A stretch of DNA of 28,830 bases, from positions 1 to 28,830 of the forward strand of contig JARRRI010000057.1 in NCBI GenBank assembly GCA_037380845.1, in the 5' to 3' direction. Source of the DNA: Candidatus Sulfobium sp. (GTDB lineage: Bacteria > Nitrospirota > Thermodesulfovibrionia > Thermodesulfovibrionales > UBA6898). Shown here piece after piece: positions 1,935 to 23,445 of the stretch. Position 1 is the stretch's first letter. Each line of letters opens with the position of its first letter. The notes under the pieces were generated by a model. It did no database searches, was not told where the DNA came from, and was given only the letters and a program-made list of their open reading frames with translations. The translations under genes and the position numbers were made by a program.

Positions 1935-2147
1935 CTACTTTAAGGAGTAAATTCCCTTGAGGATCAGGAGGAGCCAGGGGATGCCGTGGAGGAAAAGGTC
2001 GAACCAGTCTATGGGTCTCACAAGCTTCCCCTTGAAGAGCATCTGGAGTTTTTCTACTATATGCGGCGGCGCAAAGGGGGCAAGCCCCAGAGTGAGGCAG
2101 ATAATGATCAGGGTGCCCCAGGATATCTTGGCAAGCACTTGTTCCAT
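1935..2147 (-). CDS. Small conserved two-TM membrane protein (70 aa)
   Basis: Two hydrophobic segments with the recurrent 'LGLAPF.PPH..EKL.ML..G.L..PIDWFDL..HG.P' pattern. Function unknown. Confidence 0.8.
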   Translation of the reverse strand: MEQVLAKISWGTLIIICLTLGLAPFAPPHIVEKLQMLFKGKLVRPIDWFDLFLHGIPWLLLILKGIYSLK

Positions 2148-2192
2148 CCGGAAATTATAACACAGGCCCGATGCCGGTATAATTTAAGCGAA

Positions 2193-3053
2193 ATGGAGAT
2201 AATACCGGGACCTGAATGGGAGACTCTCCTAAACACGACCTTGAAAGTGAAGGGCGCTGTCATGATCATGGGAACCACCGACTCCGGGAAAACAACGCTT
2301 GCGCGATACCTGATCAAGCATCTTCTTTCAGAAGGGATAAAAGTATCTCTTGTCGACACCGACGTGGGACAGACTTCTCTCGGCCTGCCCGGGACAATCA
2401 GCATGAAGGTTTTTCCCTCCCCGGAAGACCTGGAAGACTTTATGCCCGACAGGATGTTCTTTGTGGGGGTCGTAAACCCGGCAACGGCTATTCCCCTGAT
2501 AATAAGGACGGCGGGGACTGCGGTCGGGAAATGCAGGGAGAAATCGGACATTGTCCTGATGGATACGAGCGGGCTCGTCTCCGGAAGAATCGGTGAGGTG
2601 CTAAAGACGGGCAAGATCAGGGCGGTAAGGCCCGAACACATAATAGCAGTACAGAGGGAAGACGAAATCGAGCATATCCTGAAACTGGCCGGAGATATCG
2701 ATATTTCGAGAGTCGTCGCTTCTGGGACGGTGAAAAAAAGAGATACGGGGAAGCGTATACGGTACCGGGAGAAGAAGTATGAAAGTTACTTCAGAGAAGT
2801 ACAGCAGGCAGAATATCTGGTGGATTTGCGGGATACTGGCCCTTTTTACAAAGGCAGGGAGCTGAGCCCGGGACGAAGCGGTTTTCCGAAGGGGAACGTC
2901 ATAGGCCTGAACCGCGGCGACGAAACGCTTGCCCTGGGGCTTCTGACCGAAATCGGCGAAGACAGGGTAACCTTCAAATCTCCTCTTGGGTCACTGAAAG
3001 GAATAAACCGCATCGTCTTCGGAGACATCTCTTATACAGCGCCAAGCGCATAG
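2193..3053 (+). CDS. Clp1/Grc3/Nol9-family polynucleotide 5'-hydroxyl kinase
   Basis: Walker A GTTDSGKTT, DTDVGQ motif, DTSG, and basic lid 'KRDTGKRIRYRE'. Start moved to ATG 2193 because the upstream extension overlaps the divergent gene. Confidence 0.85.
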   Translation: MEIIPGPEWETLLNTTLKVKGAVMIMGTTDSGKTTLARYLIKHLLSEGIKVSLVDTDVGQTSLGLPGTISMKVFPSPEDLEDFMPDRMFFVGVVNPATAIPLIIRTAGTAVGKCREKSDIVLMDTSGLVSGRIGEVLKTGKIRAVRPEHIIAVQREDEIEHILKLAGDIDISRVVASGTVKKRDTGKRIRYREKKYESYFREVQQAEYLVDLRDTGPFYKGRELSPGRSGFPKGNVIGLNRGDETLALGLLTEIGEDRVTFKSPLGSLKGINRIVFGDISYTAPSA

Positions 3054-3123: not shown

Positions 3124-3936
3124 TTACCTACTGCCTATTTTTTCCGGCAGAAAATATGAAAGGGGAATTCCGGCGATTACGAGTGCGAGGATTGCCAGCG
3201 ATATTTGAGGACCGTAAAGCGTTGTGAAAGGAGGTTCGCCGCTATAAAGCGTAAATGCCGGAGCGAGGTCGAAAGGCAGCGTGTAGAGAAGTACGAGCCC
3301 CGCCAGTGAAAAGAGCGGCATTCCCAGGGCTTTCGGACGCTTTTTCAAAATGCAGTAAAGGGCACTCAGGATCGATGTGAAGAAAAGGAACTTGGCGATG
3401 AATTTCTTTACCCCTGCATCTATTCCGACACCTCCCGCCCCGGCATCCAGAAGGCTCCTTTCCAGCATTACGAACAGTGCCTCCACCTTTTCGGCGGAAT
3501 ACCCTGCAACGTAAAGGTTTCTGGACGCCCCGGAGAAGACCATCTCCACATCGGTGATAATTCCCTTGGGCAGGTTACAGGTATAAGAGAAACCGGATGC
3601 GGTCTTCGGGAGGACGGAACTGCGTGAAAGGAGACTGTGGCCCGACATCCTGATGCCGGTCCTGCTGTCTGAGACAAGGATGTTCTCTCCGGAAGCATTA
3701 CCATTAGCGGCCGTGAATCCTCCATTTGCCTTCGAGACAAAATCAGCCGAACTGTCCATGATTTTCTGGATATCTCCGTAAGTCAGGAGGAGAGGGGGGA
3801 GGGCAGCCTTTCTGGAATATAGCGCCTGCGAAAAAGCAGGTAGCTCCGAAGCCAGCAGGAATACAACCACCGCCAGGGAAAAAAATACTTGTCTGATAAC
3901 CACGATCCTTGCCGCTCCATGTCCGCCAGCCTTCAT
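3124..3936 (-). CDS. Hypothetical membrane protein (signal peptide, soluble domain, about 3 C-terminal TM helices)
   Basis: 270-aa ORF with GGAGG RBS, hydrophobic N-terminal segment ending AFS-QA and hydrophobic C-terminal segments. Confidence 0.7.
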   Translation of the reverse strand: MKAGGHGAARIVVIRQVFFSLAVVVFLLASELPAFSQALYSRKAALPPLLLTYGDIQKIMDSSADFVSKANGGFTAANGNASGENILVSDSRTGIRMSGHSLLSRSSVLPKTASGFSYTCNLPKGIITDVEMVFSGASRNLYVAGYSAEKVEALFVMLERSLLDAGAGGVGIDAGVKKFIAKFLFFTSILSALYCILKKRPKALGMPLFSLAGLVLLYTLPFDLAPAFTLYSGEPPFTTLYGPQISLAILALVIAGIPLSYFLPEKIGSR

Positions 3937-4114
3937 TCTTCCTCCACCAAAAGGTATATTGAATCAAGCGCCCTCCCGGTATAAGAGGGCGATATTTCAT
4001 ATCATAATAATTCACGAAGAAAAATCATAGTCAGGTCCGCGAGGAATTTTCGCTCGATGACGATTAAGTTGCGGGCCCGTTTATGGGCTATAATAAAGTC
4101 AGTTCGGAACGCCT

Positions 4115-7903: not shown

Positions 7904-8902
7904 TTGGAACTGATACAGATGGGCCATGGGAGCGGCGGGAAGATGATGCACAGGCTGGTCAGGGATTATTTCGCACCGGCCTTTGACCTGAGGACCCTGA
8001 ACGACTCGGCGGTCATCGGCGATCTTTCCCCGGGGAGGATAGCGGTGACGACTGATTCCTACGTAATATCACCCCTTTTTTTCCCTGGCGGCGATATCGG
8101 CATGCTTTCGGTCTGCGGGACCGTGAACGATTTGGCTGTTTCCGGGGCAAGACCTCTGTACCTGACGGCGGGATTCATCATCGAGGAGGGGTTTCCTCTG
8201 GACGACCTGGAGAGGATCCTGCGGTCGATGAAGGCGGCCGCGGATGAAGCGGGCGTGAAGGTGGTGGCCGGCGATACAAAGGTGGTAGACAAGGGAAAAG
8301 GCGATGGGGTTTTCATAAATACCGCGGGAGTCGGGGTCGTGGAAGGGGGAGTGGACATTTCACCGCGCCACATGAGAGCCGGCGATAAGATTATATTGAG
8401 CGGGTCGATCGGCAACCACGGTGTTGCGGTGATGGCGCAGAGGAACGGCATAAGTTTCGATCCGCCCCTGGAGAGCGACGTCCGGCCCCTGAACGGACTT
8501 GCCGGGCTGATGCTCGGCAGGACGGGCAACATCCGCGTGATGAGGGACCCGACCAGGGGAGGACTGGCGACTACGCTGAAGGAGTTTGCGAACGATTCCG
8601 GCCTGGGCATAGTCGTCGAAGAGAGCCTCATAGAAGTGATGCCCGGCGTCAGGGGCGCATGCGAGCTTTTGGGCCTCGATCCGCTGTACATAGCCAACGA
8701 GGGTATACTCGTTGCCGTCGTAGAGGCAGGCGACGCCGGCATGCTCGTAGATGAAATGAGAAGGACGGAAGCCGGCGCCGGGGCCGCCGTAATCGGCGGG
8801 GTGGTTGATGCCCCTCCCGAGACTGTGTTGTTGAAAACAGAGATCGGCGGGAGTAGAATAGTTGACATGCTTACGGGAGACCAGCTGCCCAGGATATGCT
8901 GA
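7904..8902 (+). CDS. hypE: Carbamoyl dehydratase HypE
   Basis: HGSGG, TTDSYV, GTVNDLA, GDTKVV, RDPTRGG and C-terminal LPRIC. TTG start with GAGGTG RBS. Confidence 0.97.
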   Translation: MELIQMGHGSGGKMMHRLVRDYFAPAFDLRTLNDSAVIGDLSPGRIAVTTDSYVISPLFFPGGDIGMLSVCGTVNDLAVSGARPLYLTAGFIIEEGFPLDDLERILRSMKAAADEAGVKVVAGDTKVVDKGKGDGVFINTAGVGVVEGGVDISPRHMRAGDKIILSGSIGNHGVAVMAQRNGISFDPPLESDVRPLNGLAGLMLGRTGNIRVMRDPTRGGLATTLKEFANDSGLGIVVEESLIEVMPGVRGACELLGLDPLYIANEGILVAVVEAGDAGMLVDEMRRTEAGAGAAVIGGVVDAPPETVLLKTEIGGSRIVDMLTGDQLPRIC

Positions 8903-8927
8903 ATATGGACGGGACGAAAGGGTTCTG

Positions 8928-9377
8928 ATGGCCGGCAATGAGAAAGTGGTGGTGAGACTTAACGACGGCGGCCTTCTCAAGGGCTACCTGAGGGATTTTT
9001 CGCCCGGCCGGCCTAAACTGTCTCTCGATGAGACCGGTACGGCGAAGACGCTGCCGGTGAAGCTTGAAGACGTGAAGGCCGTATTTTTTGTGAAGTCCTT
9101 CGAGGGGGACCACGAGTACAGGGAGAGGAAATCCTATGGAGCGGCCCGTCCCAAAGGGCAGCGTGTTTTCGTGAAATTCAGCGACGGCGAATCGCTGGTC
9201 GGGTTTCTGGAAGGAGAGGTGCCGTGGAAGAAGGGTTTTTTTCTTTCCAGGCAGCGTGACCTCAATGGCTTTTACCTGCTGCCCGCCGATGAGGATACCA
9301 ATAATACCAGGGTCTTTGTGGTCGCATCTTCGGTGGATGACGTTACTGTGGTGCCGGCCCAGGCGGAGAACACGTGA
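8928..9377 (+). CDS. Conserved hypothetical protein (DUF6982-like, two internal beta-rich repeats)
   Basis: 'KVVVR..DG.LLKGY..DF', '[11 protein letters not shown]', 'VKFSDGE.LVG', 'GFYLLPAD...NN.RVFV'. Overlaps the pdxJ start (GTGA). Confidence 0.7.
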
Positions 9378-17489: not shown

Positions 17490-18797
17490 TCAGTCTTCCT
17501 CCGGTACCGGGCTGCGGGATGTGGCCAATATAATGCCCTGTCCGGGACTCAGGTCGTATGAAAAAGGAGACGGCACATCTTCCAGCCGGTTTTCAGGAGA
17601 GATGTCAGTAAGGGGGGTCCCGGTTTGAAAGTATGTCTGAAGGTCGTCGGCATGAAAACGCTGGCTGTTATGGATGTCCTTGTTCAGGATCAGGAGGGAT
17701 TCCTCCTGTGTGTGGCTCGAAGCCTTCCACATCAGCAGCACGTTGCTGTTATCGTAGTGAGGTAATTCCGTGGATGCGTCCTCCTGAAAGATAATGTGGC
17801 CGCTCTTGATCCCGTTGACCGTCTTTATATAATCGGTGAGATCGATGTCCGTCTCCTCCCAGTCTTCCGGCCTCGTCTTTACTACGTGCGGCCTTTTCCG
17901 GAAACCGAACTCGAAGCCCATGGGCATCATCAGTCCTCCCGAAAAGAGGGCAGCGAAGAGATAGCGTTGTTTGAGCCCCTCCACGTTGCCGTTGAGCTCC
18001 TCGCAAAGCCTTACGGTATCGTGGCTTTCCGGGAAACTTATAGACGGGACGATATCACGTGTCAGGGCATACTGTTTCATCAGCCAGGGGCTCCTGAAGT
18101 CCCACCATTTCGAGCTGTTGAATATATAATCGAACCCCGCACGGGCTGTTTTTATTGTAAGGTCCGGCGGACAGCCCAGGGTCTCGGCAAAAAAGAGGAT
18201 GTCGGGATGCTTTTCCCTCGTCTCATGGATCAGCCTTTCCCAGAGGCTTCGGGGCAACTGGTAGGCGGCATCGCAGCGGAAACCCGAGAAGCCGAGTTCT
18301 ACAAGGGAAGTCACAACCCTGAAGCAGAAGCCGTAAAGCCCTTCCTTGTCCCGCGTATTCCTGTGGTCGAACTTTGCCAGGTCCTTCCAGACCACCTTTT
18401 TACCGTTTTCGTCTGCGAAGGGATGGGCAACTCTGCCTTTACCTTCCCATTCAAACCATTCCGGATGTTCCTTAAGGAGGGCGGAGTCGGTGCTGCAGTG
18501 GTTAATGACCAGATCGACCATGACCCTGAGACCCATCTTTTCCGCGGACGCTATCGCTGCCTTGACCTGTTCCCGCGGCGGAGAGGAACTTTCATTGTCT
18601 ACAAGCAGAGGATTAAAGTTGAAATAATCGGCTATGGAGTAGATGCTCCCGGATTTTCCGGTTGCCTGTATGGGATTGACGAAGACCCAGTTGAAGCCCA
18701 TTTCGGCGGCCCTCGACAAGTGGCGCTCCCAGTCTGAAAAATTTCCGGCAAGCAGCGGGAAGAGATTGTAGATTATCATTTTTTCTGGTGGTCTCAT
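17490..18797 (-). CDS. GH13 alpha-amylase-family protein (GlgE-like catalytic domain)
   Basis: GH13 regions DLVINH, GFRCDAAY (nucleophile Asp), FAETLG (acid/base Glu) and ESHD. 'GSIYSI.D' and 'HPEWF' resemble GlgE. AAGGAG RBS. Confidence 0.88.
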   Translation of the reverse strand: MRPPEKMIIYNLFPLLAGNFSDWERHLSRAAEMGFNWVFVNPIQATGKSGSIYSIADYFNFNPLLVDNESSSPPREQVKAAIASAEKMGLRVMVDLVINHCSTDSALLKEHPEWFEWEGKGRVAHPFADENGKKVVWKDLAKFDHRNTRDKEGLYGFCFRVVTSLVELGFSGFRCDAAYQLPRSLWERLIHETREKHPDILFFAETLGCPPDLTIKTARAGFDYIFNSSKWWDFRSPWLMKQYALTRDIVPSISFPESHDTVRLCEELNGNVEGLKQRYLFAALFSGGLMMPMGFEFGFRKRPHVVKTRPEDWEETDIDLTDYIKTVNGIKSGHIIFQEDASTELPHYDNSNVLLMWKASSHTQEESLLILNKDIHNSQRFHADDLQTYFQTGTPLTDISPENRLEDVPSPFSYDLSPGQGIILATSRSPVPEED

Positions 18798-18931: not shown

Positions 18932-20011
18932 TTATTCGCCCTTTCTACGCAAATAAAATTGTCTGCACGCCTCATCAACCAGCTTTTTATTCTGAGCGAG
19001 TACGGCGAGCCAGTAGTTCATTCTTTCGGCGTTTGTCCTGTCCCGCCAGTGATCAAATAAAAAGGCTGCGTCCTCAAGCGGAGTCCTGCCTTCGCCGGGA
19101 TGTATTTCAAGTGAGAAGGATATCTGATCCGGAGGCAGGATTTCAAGAGACTGCCTGACGATCGATGAAAGGCCCGAAAGGCCGTACATGAGGTCCAGAG
19201 ATCCCTTGTCCCTGAATTGAAAGGGGAGGGGTACGGTTTCCAGAAAGCTCATGTGGTCCGATACGCCGAAGACACTGGAGGATGAAAGGGGATGGCCGTC
19301 ATGGAGGTGGAAATGGAGCGGCTTTCCCAGTGTCCCCAGTTCCCTGACGACACGAAGGGTTTCGGGCAGCGCCGCCTCGACGGCGTAAGAGATGTCTTCC
19401 ATAAGACCCTTCAAACCTGGATCATCAGTCCTTATCTCGCAGACGTCCCTGCCGGCATGCATTTCTGAAAATATTTTGCGAATCTTCCATATCCCCACGT
19501 GACCGGTATCTATGCAGGCGCTGACATTCTTAAGTCCGCGTATACGGCTAAAGAGATTGATGAATACTTCAGTATCCAGCCCGGATGCGTATTCTATAAA
19601 CAGGTAAACCCCGTCCCCGCCCCGGACCATGGAGTCCAGTTCCCTCAGGGCGTCTGTATAATCGTCCGTCCGGTTCACTGCTTCCGCCTGATCATGAACG
19701 ACGAGACCGTAAATTCGGCCTGCCGCTTTCCCGGCGAAGTGGGCTATAGTCTCGCGTCCGGCCTGGTCCATGACATCAAGACCGCGCTGGAGATGTACGG
19801 CTGCGGGCGCTTCCGGGTAAGGTCTGAACTGCAGCAGATACTCGAGTTCCGCAGGCGTCTCCGCATAAAGCTCGGTCCCAATCTGTGCCTGACTGAAGCG
19901 CAGCCTTGCCAGATTCATAAGGGCATCGTCACCGTCCACCCTCTTTTGAAAAAGAGCAAGAATGCGCGGGCAGGAAGCTGTCCTGCCCTGTTTGCCTGCG
20001 GCCCGGTTCAC
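18932..20011 (-). CDS. Xylose-isomerase/AP-endonuclease-2-like TIM-barrel protein
   Basis: Candidate metal-ligand motifs FIEY, CIDTGH, HFHLHDGH, SDH and SLEIH. GTG start overlaps the PWD stop. Confidence 0.72.
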   Translation of the reverse strand: MNRAAGKQGRTASCPRILALFQKRVDGDDALMNLARLRFSQAQIGTELYAETPAELEYLLQFRPYPEAPAAVHLQRGLDVMDQAGRETIAHFAGKAAGRIYGLVVHDQAEAVNRTDDYTDALRELDSMVRGGDGVYLFIEYASGLDTEVFINLFSRIRGLKNVSACIDTGHVGIWKIRKIFSEMHAGRDVCEIRTDDPGLKGLMEDISYAVEAALPETLRVVRELGTLGKPLHFHLHDGHPLSSSSVFGVSDHMSFLETVPLPFQFRDKGSLDLMYGLSGLSSIVRQSLEILPPDQISFSLEIHPGEGRTPLEDAAFLFDHWRDRTNAERMNYWLAVLAQNKKLVDEACRQFYLRRKGE

Positions 20012-23000
20012 GGTATCCCCTGCTGGGGCCTTGACTGGACCAGACAGATCTCTTCTCCGGAGATTATGCCTTCGATGTCCTGCGGCTTTCCGAGACGTTC
20101 CTCCACGTACACAGCAATATTCGTGAGTCTTTTCCCCATGTCTTTTCTGAATTTTTCATCCGTCGAAAACCTGGTCCGGGAATAATCCATTACTTCCCTT
20201 GTTATTCCCCCATCGGGGCCGGGCAGGAAGGCCTGGCTGAAGCTCGCAAAGGAGAGCATCCGTGCTCCGGCTGCATGCCTGCTGCACACCATGCGGTAGG
20301 GTGTTCCCGGCAGTCTGCCGGAAGCGAGGACCTCGCCCAGTCCTGCTGCCAGTTCGATATACACCTCATCGCGCTCCCCTGTGACGGGGTTAACGGTGTG
20401 GATGATAAAGGCATAGTCAGGCACCCTCATCTCCTGAACCAGCACTGCCATATGGGCATCTCCGTGAGGGACCCCGAGCTGTGCCCTGTTCATTACGGCC
20501 CTCTTCGTCCAGAGGGAAGCCCAGACAGACCTGACCGCGTCACCAATCCCTTCTGCCGAAACATTTGCGACACTCTCGTAAAGACCGGCCCCCGACAGAC
20601 CTTCCAGATCTTCGCAGTTGGAGCTGGACCTTACCATCAATCTCTTCCCGGGTCCGAACGTTTTTCCCACGGCCGGTAGTAATCCATCAGGTGTTTTCGT
20701 GACCGCCATTATCTTCCTCATCCGGGCCAGTATGTCGTCCGTCTCTGCCGCCCCGGCATTGTCCAGTCTCCCGATAAGAGATCGGTATTCTCTTCCGAGT
20801 TCAGGGCTCTTCTTCAGGCACTCTTCCATCACGCCGAAAGGTATTGCCGCACTCTTCGGAGTCGTGAAACCCGCCCCGGAGCCACTGGACAGCTCCAGAA
20901 GCCTTCTGGCTCCGAAGGCCTTTCCACCGCAGCTTTCAAGTGTAATGCCGTCTCTTTCGAGAAGTCCCTTTCCGCCGGGAGTCTCAACGGCGGGAAGTTC
21001 TACATGAGCGGCAGGAGACCGCCTCTTCGCATCATTTGTCCGGCCCCCCGAAACAGTGTATCGGACGTTTTCACCCCGGGCGTCAAAGGTTATGGTCTTT
21101 CCCTTGAGGTCCCGGAGGCCGGAAAAGACTTCTTCGTCCTCGCAGCCTGCAAATACCACTCCGGCCTGCCTGGCTCGCACCGCCAGGTGGGAGAGGTGGG
21201 GTGTCTCGTGGGGCACTACTATTGCGGCAACCACTGCCGGTATTTCCTCATCTCCCTCGACTTTTTCAAGGAGGGCGATAACAGACCGGTCACGGGCCCG
21301 GGACAGGCCGGAGAGACCCGGGGCGGGCCTCAGCCTGCCGGAAACTTTTCCCGGCACGATCACGTCCCAGGGGGGGAGGGCCGCCCTTTGCCTGACAACC
21401 TTCAGCAGGAAGCCGGCAAGCTTCGAGAGCTGGAAGACCGGATGGCCCCGTATCTCCGATTCGGTGAATACCCTTACCGCCCGCTGATCGACGCCCAGCG
21501 CATGACCGAGTCTTTCGGCCCTTTCCGGAAAGAGGGACATTACTGTCTGCGTGTAGGCTTCGGAAAGCCTCAGGCTCCTGTCCACAGTCGCCTTGAGTCT
21601 GAGAAGCCGGTATCGGCTGCTGTCGTCGAATCCCTGTCGCCACGCCTCGAGTTCGGACACGATTGCCCGGCATTCCTCACGGTCGAACCCGCCGATCCGC
21701 AGATTTTCCACTGTCAGTCCCAGGCAGCGAAGGGCGCGCTCCCACGGGACCGCCTTATGAGATCTTAAGTCGCCGAAAATCCTGCTTACGAGGACAAAGG
21801 AGAAATCCTCCATGCCGGTATCGGCCGCCGTCAATTGCTGGGCCTCGGAGTCGTCCCTGCCCCGGCGGCGAACGGCGAAGAGTTCGCGGAGGCGGGTGAG
21901 AAGTTCGAATGCCTCCGTCAGGCCTTCGGAATCTTTCGCCGATGCCTTTGCGTCAAGGAAGCGGTGTATGATGCCGGCCTCCTCTTCGCCTGAAATCCGC
22001 GCGACTGCTTCAAGCTGCTCATCGAGGGACCGGGCGTTAAAGAACTCTTTCAGCTCTTCATGGAATTTCCTGAACTCCCCGATGAAGGAAGAGGGGTAGT
22101 CGGCGCCGGGAGATGTGATTCTCTCCAGGAGGCGGGATGAAGTCTCAAGGTCCTCCGGCCCGGCATTACGATGGAGCTTGTTCTGAAGGGTAGCCTTGAT
22201 CTCCCGCTTCAGCTCCTGGGGGATATCATTTCTGTGGGCGATGTCACGTATCCGCGTCAGGGGCTCGGCCCGGAGGAAGTCGCTGTCGAAGGAGGGTAGC
22301 CAGGGGTAGATCTTTCTGATGATAAAGGAGTTTTCCGGTGTCTCCATCCTGGCGAGGCGACCGAATATGTCTTTTGCCATCCGGGCATGATGGGAAGGCC
22401 GGTAGTGGCTGCCGTCTTCCGTGACCTTTACCTGACCGGTGCCCAGAAAACGAAGATAAATCGCCAGGTAGACAAGCTGCTCCCTGGTGAGGTCCGGCGC
22501 ACCGTTCGAAAAGAGATCGTGCACCCAACTGAGCTTTTCCCGCCAGCTCTTCCGTTTCCTGTCCGCGAGGGCGATGACGCGCGCAAAATCGCCTCCGGGT
22601 ATTTCCGGCTTCGGCGCCGCGGTCGCTTTGGGAGAAACGCCGATTATGGACAGGAGCCTGTTTCTCGCCTCATCGATCAGCCGGGGAGGGTCGGGCCATT
22701 GTTCAAGGATGAGGGAACCGGAGAATCTTCTCTTCTTCAGCCGGTCGATCAACCCTCTTATGCCGGAATCGTCCTTTGCGGACGGCCCCGTAAAAAGAGG
22801 AAGGTGTCTGTCGGAGTCGCCGTAATTTTCATGGAGATGAGCATGGATGATCGGCAGGTCCCCGTCGAGGAGATCAATATACCGGAGGTAATCATTGCGG
22901 GTAGCCCGGCAGATGTTGGCATGCCCCAGGTCGAGGCACATTCCGGCGGAGGGTTTTCCCCCGGTGTCATGCCCCAGAAGACGGAAGAGTTCGTTGAAAT

Positions 23001-23445
23001 CATCCGGCGTGGTCTCGGTCGTATTCTCTATCGAGAGGCTAATCCCTTTATCGGAAAGTTCATTAATGACCGGACGGACCGCTTCGGCGAAGGCCGCGGC
23101 CCCTTTTTCCTTATAGAAGTGTATGTTCATGACCACGGCCCCGATGTCACGGGCGAGACTCAACGCACGCTCCATTTCGACTTCCGACCCCTGCGTGAAG
23201 GGGCTCCATCGCCACGGGACGTGAACGGACAAACGGATGTCGTGTGCGGCAGCCGTATCTTTTATATAGACGCGCGTTTCTTCCCCGAGGTCCCCTTCAG
23301 ACCAGCCTTCTCCGCTTTCTTTCCTGTCCGGAAACCACTCGAAGGCGTCGAACCCGTTCGCTACGGCGTATTCGAAGGGCTCCGTGATGCTTCCGGCAAA
23401 CCAGGCGGTCTGGTTGCCTATTCTGAAGCCCTTTTTCTCACCCAT
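20008..23445 (-). CDS. Phosphoglucan, water dikinase (PWD/GWD3)-like protein with N-terminal TIM barrel
   Basis: PWD signatures AIYLRFLGTGQ...EDGSHYRPSHHA and PLTRIRDIAHRNDIPQELKREIKATLQNKLHRNAGPEDL; phospho-His motif PHLSHLAVRARQ; nucleotide-binding VRSSSNCEDLEGLSGAGLYES...PQDIEG...VQSRPQ. Confidence 0.9.
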   Translation of the reverse strand: MGEKKGFRIGNQTAWFAGSITEPFEYAVANGFDAFEWFPDRKESGEGWSEGDLGEETRVYIKDTAAAHDIRLSVHVPWRWSPFTQGSEVEMERALSLARDIGAVVMNIHFYKEKGAAAFAEAVRPVINELSDKGISLSIENTTETTPDDFNELFRLLGHDTGGKPSAGMCLDLGHANICRATRNDYLRYIDLLDGDLPIIHAHLHENYGDSDRHLPLFTGPSAKDDSGIRGLIDRLKKRRFSGSLILEQWPDPPRLIDEARNRLLSIIGVSPKATAAPKPEIPGGDFARVIALADRKRKSWREKLSWVHDLFSNGAPDLTREQLVYLAIYLRFLGTGQVKVTEDGSHYRPSHHARMAKDIFGRLARMETPENSFIIRKIYPWLPSFDSDFLRAEPLTRIRDIAHRNDIPQELKREIKATLQNKLHRNAGPEDLETSSRLLERITSPGADYPSSFIGEFRKFHEELKEFFNARSLDEQLEAVARISGEEEAGIIHRFLDAKASAKDSEGLTEAFELLTRLRELFAVRRRGRDDSEAQQLTAADTGMEDFSFVLVSRIFGDLRSHKAVPWERALRCLGLTVENLRIGGFDREECRAIVSELEAWRQGFDDSSRYRLLRLKATVDRSLRLSEAYTQTVMSLFPERAERLGHALGVDQRAVRVFTESEIRGHPVFQLSKLAGFLLKVVRQRAALPPWDVIVPGKVSGRLRPAPGLSGLSRARDRSVIALLEKVEGDEEIPAVVAAIVVPHETPHLSHLAVRARQAGVVFAGCEDEEVFSGLRDLKGKTITFDARGENVRYTVSGGRTNDAKRRSPAAHVELPAVETPGGKGLLERDGITLESCGGKAFGARRLLELSSGSGAGFTTPKSAAIPFGVMEECLKKSPELGREYRSLIGRLDNAGAAETDDILARMRKIMAVTKTPDGLLPAVGKTFGPGKRLMVRSSSNCEDLEGLSGAGLYESVANVSAEGIGDAVRSVWASLWTKRAVMNRAQLGVPHGDAHMAVLVQEMRVPDYAFIIHTVNPVTGERDEVYIELAAGLGEVLASGRLPGTPYRMVCSRHAAGARMLSFASFSQAFLPGPDGGITREVMDYSRTRFSTDEKFRKDMGKRLTNIAVYVEERLGKPQDIEGIISGEEICLVQSRPQQGIP

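Follow-up and report, generated by a model that had tools for sequence, protein, structure and literature searches.

A xylose-isomerase-like barrel fused to a PWD-like dikinase in a bacterial alpha-glucan operon: a candidate metal-dependent glucan phosphatase

The closest described system is that of plants and algae, in which two paralogous dikinases, GWD1 (EC 2.7.9.4) and PWD, also called GWD3 (EC 2.7.9.5), share a central, a phosphohistidine and an ATP-binding domain, and in which PWD bears an N-terminal carbohydrate-binding module (CBM) of family CBM20. For potato GWD1 it has been described that the histidine domain swings to and fro, from the ATP-binding domain to an all-alpha central domain, where the phosphate is handed to the glucan, and that the second CBM45 remains beside the central domain (PMC13553574). 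A 2026 review presents prokaryotes as being without known glucan phosphorylation machinery and without laforin-type phosphatases (PMC13666283), and GWD figures as a hallmark of crystalline starch in a 2026 preprint (10.64898/2026.09.25.754361). Here we describe a stretch of 28,830 nucleotides from Candidatus Sulfobium sp. of the Nitrospirota (contig JARRRI010000057.1 of assembly GCA_037380845.1, positions 1 to 28,830; referred to as the window), which likewise encodes two paralogous dikinases with these three domains. The gene under study, P0001, carries an N-terminal metal-type barrel (TIM1) in front of a PWD-like dikinase body, and is best explained as a natural two-enzyme fusion within a four-gene cytoplasmic operon encoding a GWD-like dikinase (P0002), the TIM1-PWD-like fusion, a second barrel (TIM2) and a GH13 enzyme (Table 1). 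The combination of GWD and PWD relatives with a metal barrel suggests an unstudied bacterial route for adding phosphate to storage glucan and removing it again.

Pfam analysis of P0001 identified AP_endonuc_2 (PF01261) at residues 24-262 (E = 2.6e-22, 80.2 bits compared to a cut-off of 31.1), followed by GWD1_pHisD (PF22973, E = 1.2e-25) and PPDK_N (PF01326, E = 1.1e-37). Neither CBM20 nor the dual-specificity phosphatase domain DSPc was found in P0001 by Pfam, the N-terminus being occupied by PF01261 instead. The catalytic His753 (codon 21187-21189) lies within PHLSHLAVRAR, pairs with the histidine of LAHVAIRAR in P0002 and is invariant in all 31 sequences of an alignment of fused homologues (A3). 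From approximately residue 250 (251) to the C-terminus P0001 and P0002 are 27% identical paralogues (E = 1e-72). The central domain of P0001 by itself gave a weak and partial match to the structure of the potato StGWD1 central domain (9ha9, E = 1e-6), and its homology to StGWD1 is established by way of P0002, of which residues 268-700 match the same structure with E = 2.5e-87. The ATP-binding domain matches structures of phosphoenolpyruvate synthase and rifampin phosphotransferase (3e-21). The P0001 body is thus an intact dikinase of the GWD/PWD family, in which the all-alpha central domain is followed by the swivelling phosphohistidine domain with its catalytic histidine and by the PPDK_N-type ATP-binding domain. 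The name 'phosphoglucan, water dikinase' found on homologues of P0001 is an automatic source annotation.

The original prediction for this gene, made from the nucleotide letters, had proposed an N-terminal barrel with motifs of the xylose isomerase/AP endonuclease 2 type, a Pro/Ala-rich linker and a PWD body with catalytic His753. All of its motifs are present in the translation, namely FEWF (35-38), SVH (73-75), NIH (107-109), IENT (139-142), DLGH (172-175), HLHEN (203-207), DRH (212-214) and LEQW (247-250). The span it gave for the barrel, 22640-23445, corresponds to residues 1-269 and agrees with the AlphaFold2 (AF2) model, in which strands and helices extend from residue 8 to 268. Composition and low pLDDT bear out the linker, and the Pfam domains, the alignment to P0002 and the invariance of His753 bear out the body, so that the sequence observation is confirmed, well beyond chance.

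TIM1 was characterized by using an alignment (A1) of the window barrel domain and 34 stand-alone homologues (35 sequences). The AF2 model derived from A1 shows eight strand/helix units with a pLDDT of 90.1 and a pTM of 0.88, and TIM1 qualifies both for the (beta/alpha)8 barrel fold and, with a score above gathering, for PF01261. Foldseek with this model returned at least 500 matches at E <= 0.001; the top ones listed belong to the xylose-isomerase-like superfamily, beginning with MJ1311 (3wqo, E = 2e-13) and continuing with ketose 3-epimerases, the AP endonuclease of African swine fever virus and UlaE. MJ1311 was also the best profile match in hmmsearch (E = 1.5e-11). Residues H75, H109, E140, D172, H175, H201, H203, H205, D212, H214 and E248 do not vary in any of the 35 sequences of A1 or the 31 of A3, and the aromatic residues F35, W37, W48, Y186, F218 and W250 are invariant in A1.

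Profile comparison of TIM1 with endonuclease IV of E. coli (Nfo) by hhalign gave a probability of 85.7 (E = 5.5e-6). In this alignment H69, H109, E145, D179 and H182 of Nfo fall on H75, H109, E140, D172 and H175 of P0001, and H216, D229, H231 and E261 fall on H205, D212, H214 and E248. We take these Nfo residues to be the ligands of its trinuclear centre, a numbering that reportedly goes back to Hosfield et al. 1999; histidine, glutamate or aspartate was verified at each of these positions in the E. coli sequence. The candidate ligands of TIM1 sit at, or just past, the C-terminal ends of strands 3-8 in the AF2 model, and the C-terminal strand ends form the catalytic face of a TIM barrel. UlaE, taken as a control from the epimerases, carries A, N, K and K where TIM1 has H109, H175, H205 and H214. 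The E-D-H-E positions of mononuclear epimerases are present in TIM1 (E140, D172, H203, E248), and these four invariant histidines come in addition. Since the scores to epimerases and endonucleases are about equal, TIM1 represents a distinct branch of the superfamily; it is set apart from the epimerases by its ligand residues and not by scores, the full predicted Nfo-type three-metal set being kept.

The sole NCBIfam match of TIM1 was CbiR (NF041277; 1.8e-9, 37.5 bits), which is far under the cut-off of 105, and no cobamide genes were found in the window. No nfo model was among the NCBIfam matches at E <= 0.01, and hmmsearch against 1qtw gave E = 0.055. TIM1 therefore belongs to PF01261 and not to the Nfo, CbiR or dual-specificity phosphatase families.

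The fusion is recurrent. Searching proteins of 629-2004 aa with residues 1-280 of P0001 yielded 395 matches, the best 120 of which (P0001 included) were analyzed. PF01261, PF22973 and PF01326 occurred together in 97 of the 120 long matches listed, the others containing PF01261 only (14 proteins of ~690-775 aa), PF01261 with GH13 domains (seven) or PF01261 with PF22973 (two). BLAST of the window proteins against the 119 other long matches listed revealed a C-terminal homologue of orf359, which is TIM2, in 12 of them (1485-1531 aa), and a barrel joined to a homologue of the GH13 protein orf435 in seven. A search for still longer fusions (2005-5000 aa) came up empty at E <= 1e-20, a result of little weight. 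In a 50%-identity representative library the family comprised 123 clusters at E <= 1e-30; this library also contains a giant protein of 5557 aa (P0316) with a TIM1-like stretch at 3766-3978 (E = 2e-61). Short barrel homologues numbered 1049, many of them 268 aa long and encoded on Mb-sized contigs.

A species scan using one genome per species found 240 relatives, and the locus counts given here and below refer to the best 80 loci. These best 80 of 240 derive from Nitrospirota/Thermodesulfovibrionales, Desulfobacterota, Chloroflexota, Acidobacteriota, Verrucomicrobiota, Omnitrophota, anammox Planctomycetes and one Parabeggiatoa, the closest being a metagenome-assembled genome (MAG) of Candidatus Sulfobium with 78% identity. 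Eight of the 80 barrel open reading frames (ORFs) run off their contig, leaving 72 complete ORFs. The full fusion was present in 34 of these, two of which also bear TIM2; 30 encode a stand-alone barrel, three a barrel with a GH13 enzyme, and five a barrel with the central domain only, one of them clearly broken. Among 41 close relatives, the fusion was detected in 11 and the stand-alone barrel in two. Fused and stand-alone states are interleaved in a FastTree tree of the 80 barrel domains, with at least eight fusion or fission changes forced by well-supported branches and 20 by parsimony. The GH13 fusion has three origins on this tree, and the four intact genes for barrel and central domain alone form one supported clade. 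In one of these loci (L025) a convergent gene comes next, so that the histidine and ATP-binding domains are truly absent there. TIM1 is an autonomous module, and a real, widespread and unstudied one.

These counts also bear on whether the fusion might have arisen in this genome through misassembly or a frameshift error, the outcome that would have undone the original prediction. We rejected this explanation and consider it practically impossible, as the frame is open over 1145 aa and the architecture, seen in 97 of the 120 listed matches and 34 of the 72 species-genome ORFs, recurs in hundreds of clusters across many phyla. Nothing direct speaks in its favour; the nearest observation is that PWD-like or orf359 frames are broken in four long-read MAG loci (L017, L018, L028 and L062), probably by assembly errors and not as pseudogenes. 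Two ORFs, of 560 and 360 aa, take the place of one in L017, and orf359 of L018 is interrupted by a stop.

To define the genomic partners of the barrel, we evaluated the 65 loci whose upstream DNA extends over 1500 nt or more. The end of a GWD-like gene is at most 30 nt from the barrel start in 47 of them, lies 31-1000 nt upstream in eight and farther away in one. This adjacency persists without any PWD-like gene, in which case the GWD-like gene is followed by a lone barrel or by a barrel-GH13 gene. Of 36 loci in which the position of TIM2 could be tested, 34 have it no more than 600 nt behind the PWD-like gene; among 18 loci without a PWD-like gene, TIM2 was present in only one. Stand-alone PWD-like genes lack a CBM, their reading frames beginning approximately 30 aa ahead of the central domain. 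The neighbour counts result in the pattern dikinase-barrel, dikinase-barrel, GH13, in which the fusion in the window links the first barrel to the second dikinase; by distribution, we infer that TIM1 pairs with the GWD-like and TIM2 with the PWD-like gene. In one Nitrospirota MAG (L035:10429-16492) approximately 6 kb of other DNA separates a stand-alone barrel from the PWD-like gene, and in L027 the distance is approximately 2.2 kb.

The phyletic distribution was determined in 301 genomes of the phylum, counting TIM1 at E <= 1e-30. TIM1 was detected in 12 of the 301 genomes and PF22973 in 14, with all 12 falling within the 14. In six genomes (G026, G038, G166, G242, G268 and G277) TIM1 is stand-alone and unlinked, on another contig or far along the chromosome. 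The presence of TIM1 tracks GWD-type dikinases, the co-occurrence count being no statistical test since the carrier genomes are related (eight genera with TIM1). The genome to which the window belongs (100% complete) encodes glycogen synthases, GlgB and GH57 enzymes, and a DSPc domain was not found anywhere in it. Outside the window it contains a weak second AP_endonuc_2-like barrel (G000:C3:108133-108438, E = 2.6e-6, 262-aa frame), located a few kb from a glycogen synthase gene (C3:100195-100902) and a GH57 gene (C3:102495-103238), an arrangement that points to a further barrel within a cluster of glucan genes.

The predicted three-metal ligand set, the autonomy of the module and its repeated fusion to glucan-related domains make a glucan phosphoesterase the likeliest function of TIM1, and the strict association with GWD-type dikinases, together with the absence of DSPc from a genome with glycogen enzymes, argues for the same assignment. 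We therefore propose, at about an even chance of being right, that TIM1 acts as a metal-dependent phosphoesterase, taking phosphate off the glucan, and is a non-homologous counterpart of plant SEX4 and LSF2. The likeness to these enzymes would be one of function and not of family membership. The GWD-like enzyme would phosphorylate the surface of an ordered glucan, and the PWD-like enzyme would add more phosphate after it. The GH13 enzyme would then break down the loosened chains, while TIM1 and TIM2 would strip off the phosphate that otherwise blocks glucan degradation. The substrate of TIM1 would accordingly be the phosphate esters placed on alpha-1,4-glucan by the dikinases. In P0001 TIM1 stands where GWD1 has its second CBM45, and its fusion to the next gene would put the barrel at this position, beside the glucan-handling central domain. 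Complex prediction of the barrel (1-272) with its own central domain (286-692), cut from alignment A3, gave a score of 0.00 and speaks neither way.

For the barrel the original prediction had offered a second activity, namely phosphoester hydrolysis, epimerisation or sugar-phosphate sensing. A second activity is likely, and given the full metal-ligand set phosphoester hydrolysis is probably the best fit of the three, with epimerisation and sensing left as rivals. Its proposal that the barrel simply takes the place of the plant CBM20 is not supported in that form. The barrel is found alone in 30 of the 72 species or fused to GH13, the GWD-like gene upstream is its steadiest neighbour, also in loci that lack a PWD-like gene, and the PWD-like body pairs with orf359 and does without a CBM when it stands alone.

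Several observations weigh against the phosphoesterase assignment. With an hhalign probability of 89.2 for UlaE compared to 85.7 for Nfo, the barrel is as near to epimerases as to endonuclease IV, and Foldseek places epimerases and the uncharacterized MJ1311 above the endonucleases. One ligand is ambiguous among H201, H203 and H205, as the alignment with Nfo points to H205, that with UlaE to H203 and that with 5zhz to H201. In nine of the 65 loci no GWD-like gene lies upstream of the barrel, and two genomes of the same order (G211 and G271, family f4) possess dikinases and gave no TIM1 match at E <= 1e-30. As the genomes are related and hence not independent, the co-occurrence counts overstate the support. 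Furthermore, a polypeptide that both attaches and removes the same phosphate ester is at risk of futile cycling. G211 and G271, in which one or two GWD-type phosphohistidine domains were found, may rely on another partner.

The barrel might instead be a phosphatase, isomerase or epimerase that works on soluble products of degradation and not on the polymer, its substrates being phospho-oligosaccharides or glucose 6- or 3-phosphate. Many isomerases and epimerases of sugars and sugar phosphates belong to the superfamily, D-psicose 3-epimerases and UlaE are among the best structural matches, the latter with the hhalign value given above, and the stand-alone forms of 268 aa lack a glucan-binding domain and are in part unlinked to a dikinase. 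Nevertheless, the four extra histidines missing from UlaE are invariant in TIM1, the recurrent fusions to the dikinase central domain and to GH13 favour action on the polymer, and one clade retains barrel and central domain alone, so that we regard an enzyme for soluble products as unlikely. Still less probable, in our view, is a non-catalytic or regulatory barrel whose metal centre recognizes glucan phosphate or glucan and positions the PWD-like body, the form in which the CBM20 idea of the original prediction survives. Such a role would suit the location directly N-terminal to the central domain, since the second CBM45 of StGWD1, in that place, is proposed to give the central domain its orientation on the glucan (PMC13553574); it would also suit the many invariant aromatic residues and stand-alone PWD-like genes without a CBM of their own. 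It is difficult to reconcile with barrels that occur alone in 30 of 72 species, also where the PWD-like gene is missing, and with an invariant and complete ligand set of catalytic type. Moreover, the relatives of known function are enzymes (endonuclease IV, the epimerases and, as a weak match below the cut-off, CbiR), the closest relative MJ1311 being uncharacterized.

The relationship to endonuclease IV and CbiR, both described as phosphodiesterases (PMC7733943), further raises the idea that the barrel performs other phosphoryl chemistry tied to the dikinase, such as cleavage or formation of glucan phosphodiesters or the handling of gamma-phosphate or pyrophosphate. Translational coupling of the barrel gene to the dikinase gene is in line with this idea. 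However, plant GWD and PWD work without such a helper (PMC13553574), and both the GH13 fusions and the unlinked stand-alone forms misfit a dikinase-internal role; we consider this explanation improbable. The removal of phosphate from glucan by TIM1 thus remains the preferred reading.

The third gene of the operon, orf359, encodes TIM2, which hhalign connects to TIM1 in a profile-profile comparison (probability 94.6, E = 6.8e-8). H73, H106, E140, D168 and H171 of TIM2 align with TIM1 ligands. These residues are invariant in TIM2, as are H233/235/237, D252, H253 and E302, in an alignment covering 36 of 37 loci, the L018 row having been left out due to its in-frame stop. The AF2 model of TIM2 reached a pLDDT of 90.5 and gave weak Foldseek matches to epimerases and endonuclease IV. 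As the orf359 profile found nothing among PDB sequences at E <= 1, the fold assignment is based on the model and weak Foldseek scores only.

The operon begins with the GWD-like dikinase P0002, in which Pfam identified Ig_N_CWD1 in two stretches (7.7e-47), GWD1_pHisD (1.2e-32) and PPDK_N (1.9e-28), corresponding to two CBM45-like domains followed by central, phosphohistidine and ATP-binding domains. The stop of P0002 and the ATG of P0001 overlap by 8 nt (ATGGGTGA), and the GTG start of orf359 overlaps the stop of P0001 (GTGA). The last gene, orf435, matches hDGE_amylase (5.2e-25) and Alpha-amylase (4.5e-11) in Pfam, and amylase 3dhu (3.6e-17) and GlgE (2.8e-16) in the PDB; what we take to be GH13 regions I-IV can be read in its sequence. 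Promoter and terminator scans of the operon gave no signal above shuffle level.

Table 1. Features of the dikinase-barrel operon and of the fusion gene P0001 in the window.
Feature	Position	Strand	Remarks
Fusion gene P0001	20008..23445	-	open frame, 1145 aa
TIM1, N-terminal xylose-isomerase-like (beta/alpha)8 barrel	22630..23445	-	residues 1-272 of P0001; Pfam, AF2, Foldseek
Pro/Ala-rich linker of P0001	22591..22641	-	residues 269-285, GVSPKATAAPKPEIPGG; low pLDDT 52-59
All-alpha central domain of P0001 body	21370..22590	-	residues 286-692; homology to P0002
Phosphohistidine domain of P0001	21052..21369	-	residues 693-798; PF22973
ATP/AMP-binding (ATP-grasp) domain of P0001	20020..20934	-	residues 838-1142; PF01326
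GWD-like dikinase P0002	23438..26917	-	1159 aa; first operon gene
orf359 (P0242), TIM2, second divergent candidate metal TIM barrel	18932..20011	-	profile-profile comparison, AF2
orf435 (P0243), GH13 alpha-glucan-active enzyme	17490..18797	-	last operon gene

The remaining genes of the window are unrelated housekeeping genes (hypF/D/E, pdxJ, acpS, nnr, tsaE and those for NAD kinase, uracil-DNA glycosylase and a ThiF protein). Upstream of hypF-hypD-hypE, positions 1986-3053 (+) encode a protein of 355 aa whose P-loop domain is of the CLP1_P family (E = 5.8e-33), which takes its name from a eukaryotic and archaeal RNA kinase. The gene at 8862-9377 (+) overlaps the end of the hypE-like gene and encodes a DUF6982 protein of 171 aa, one stretch of which faintly resembles LSM.

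Among proteins of solved structure, TIM1 most closely resembles MJ1311 of Methanocaldococcus jannaschii (3wqo, 'D-tagatose 3-epimerase-like protein'), which has the same pattern of H, H, E, D-x-x-H, H-x-H-x-H, D-x-H and E and superimposes with a TM score of 0.67-0.73; it differs in being archaeal, approximately 18% identical and uncharacterized. The nine zinc ligands of endonuclease IV are reportedly conserved in MJ1311. Endonuclease IV (Nfo, 1qtw) shares the fold, and its nine metal-ligand positions align to invariant residues of TIM1; the similarity is weak, and TIM1 is found in a context of alpha-glucan genes whereas Nfo acts in DNA repair. CbiR is a member of the same superfamily, a phosphoesterase with a substrate other than DNA and with conserved His, Asp and Glu ligands (PMC7733943), but the score of TIM1 lies below the CbiR cut-off and the neighbourhood is without cobamide genes.

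A literature search found no published description of bacterial GWD or PWD genes with such barrels. Having a dikinase of either type and two conserved metal barrels, the operon provides directly testable candidates for both halves of a phosphorylation cycle in bacteria. A more far-reaching interpretation, which we put forward tentatively and with slightly more doubt than confidence, is that many anaerobic bacteria, including Nitrospirota/Thermodesulfovibrionales, Desulfobacterota, Verrucomicrobiota, anammox bacteria and others, run a full plant-like reversible glucan phosphorylation in which each dikinase has its own three-metal phosphatase of endonuclease IV fold, TIM1 and TIM2, respectively. 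If true, this would represent a new, non-cysteine class of glucan phosphatases and would imply that these bacteria store an ordered, starch-like glucan and not plain glycogen. Should the barrels be glucan phosphatases, they would extend the AP-endonuclease-2 superfamily by a new activity, offer metal-dependent tools for tailoring starch phosphate and have a bearing on the origin of the plant dikinases.

Compared to the plant system, P0002 resembles GWD1 in its two CBM45-like domains and in the closely matching central domain, and as in plant starch phosphorylation the dikinases are linked, here within one operon, to an alpha-glucan hydrolase or transferase. In contrast to the plant system, the genes described here are bacterial, their products are cytoplasmic, they are organized in an operon, and P0001 is without CBM20. 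SEX4, LSF2 and laforin are dual-specificity (cysteine) phosphatases, whereas the candidate phosphatases of this operon are metal TIM barrels, one of them joined directly to the PWD-like dikinase.

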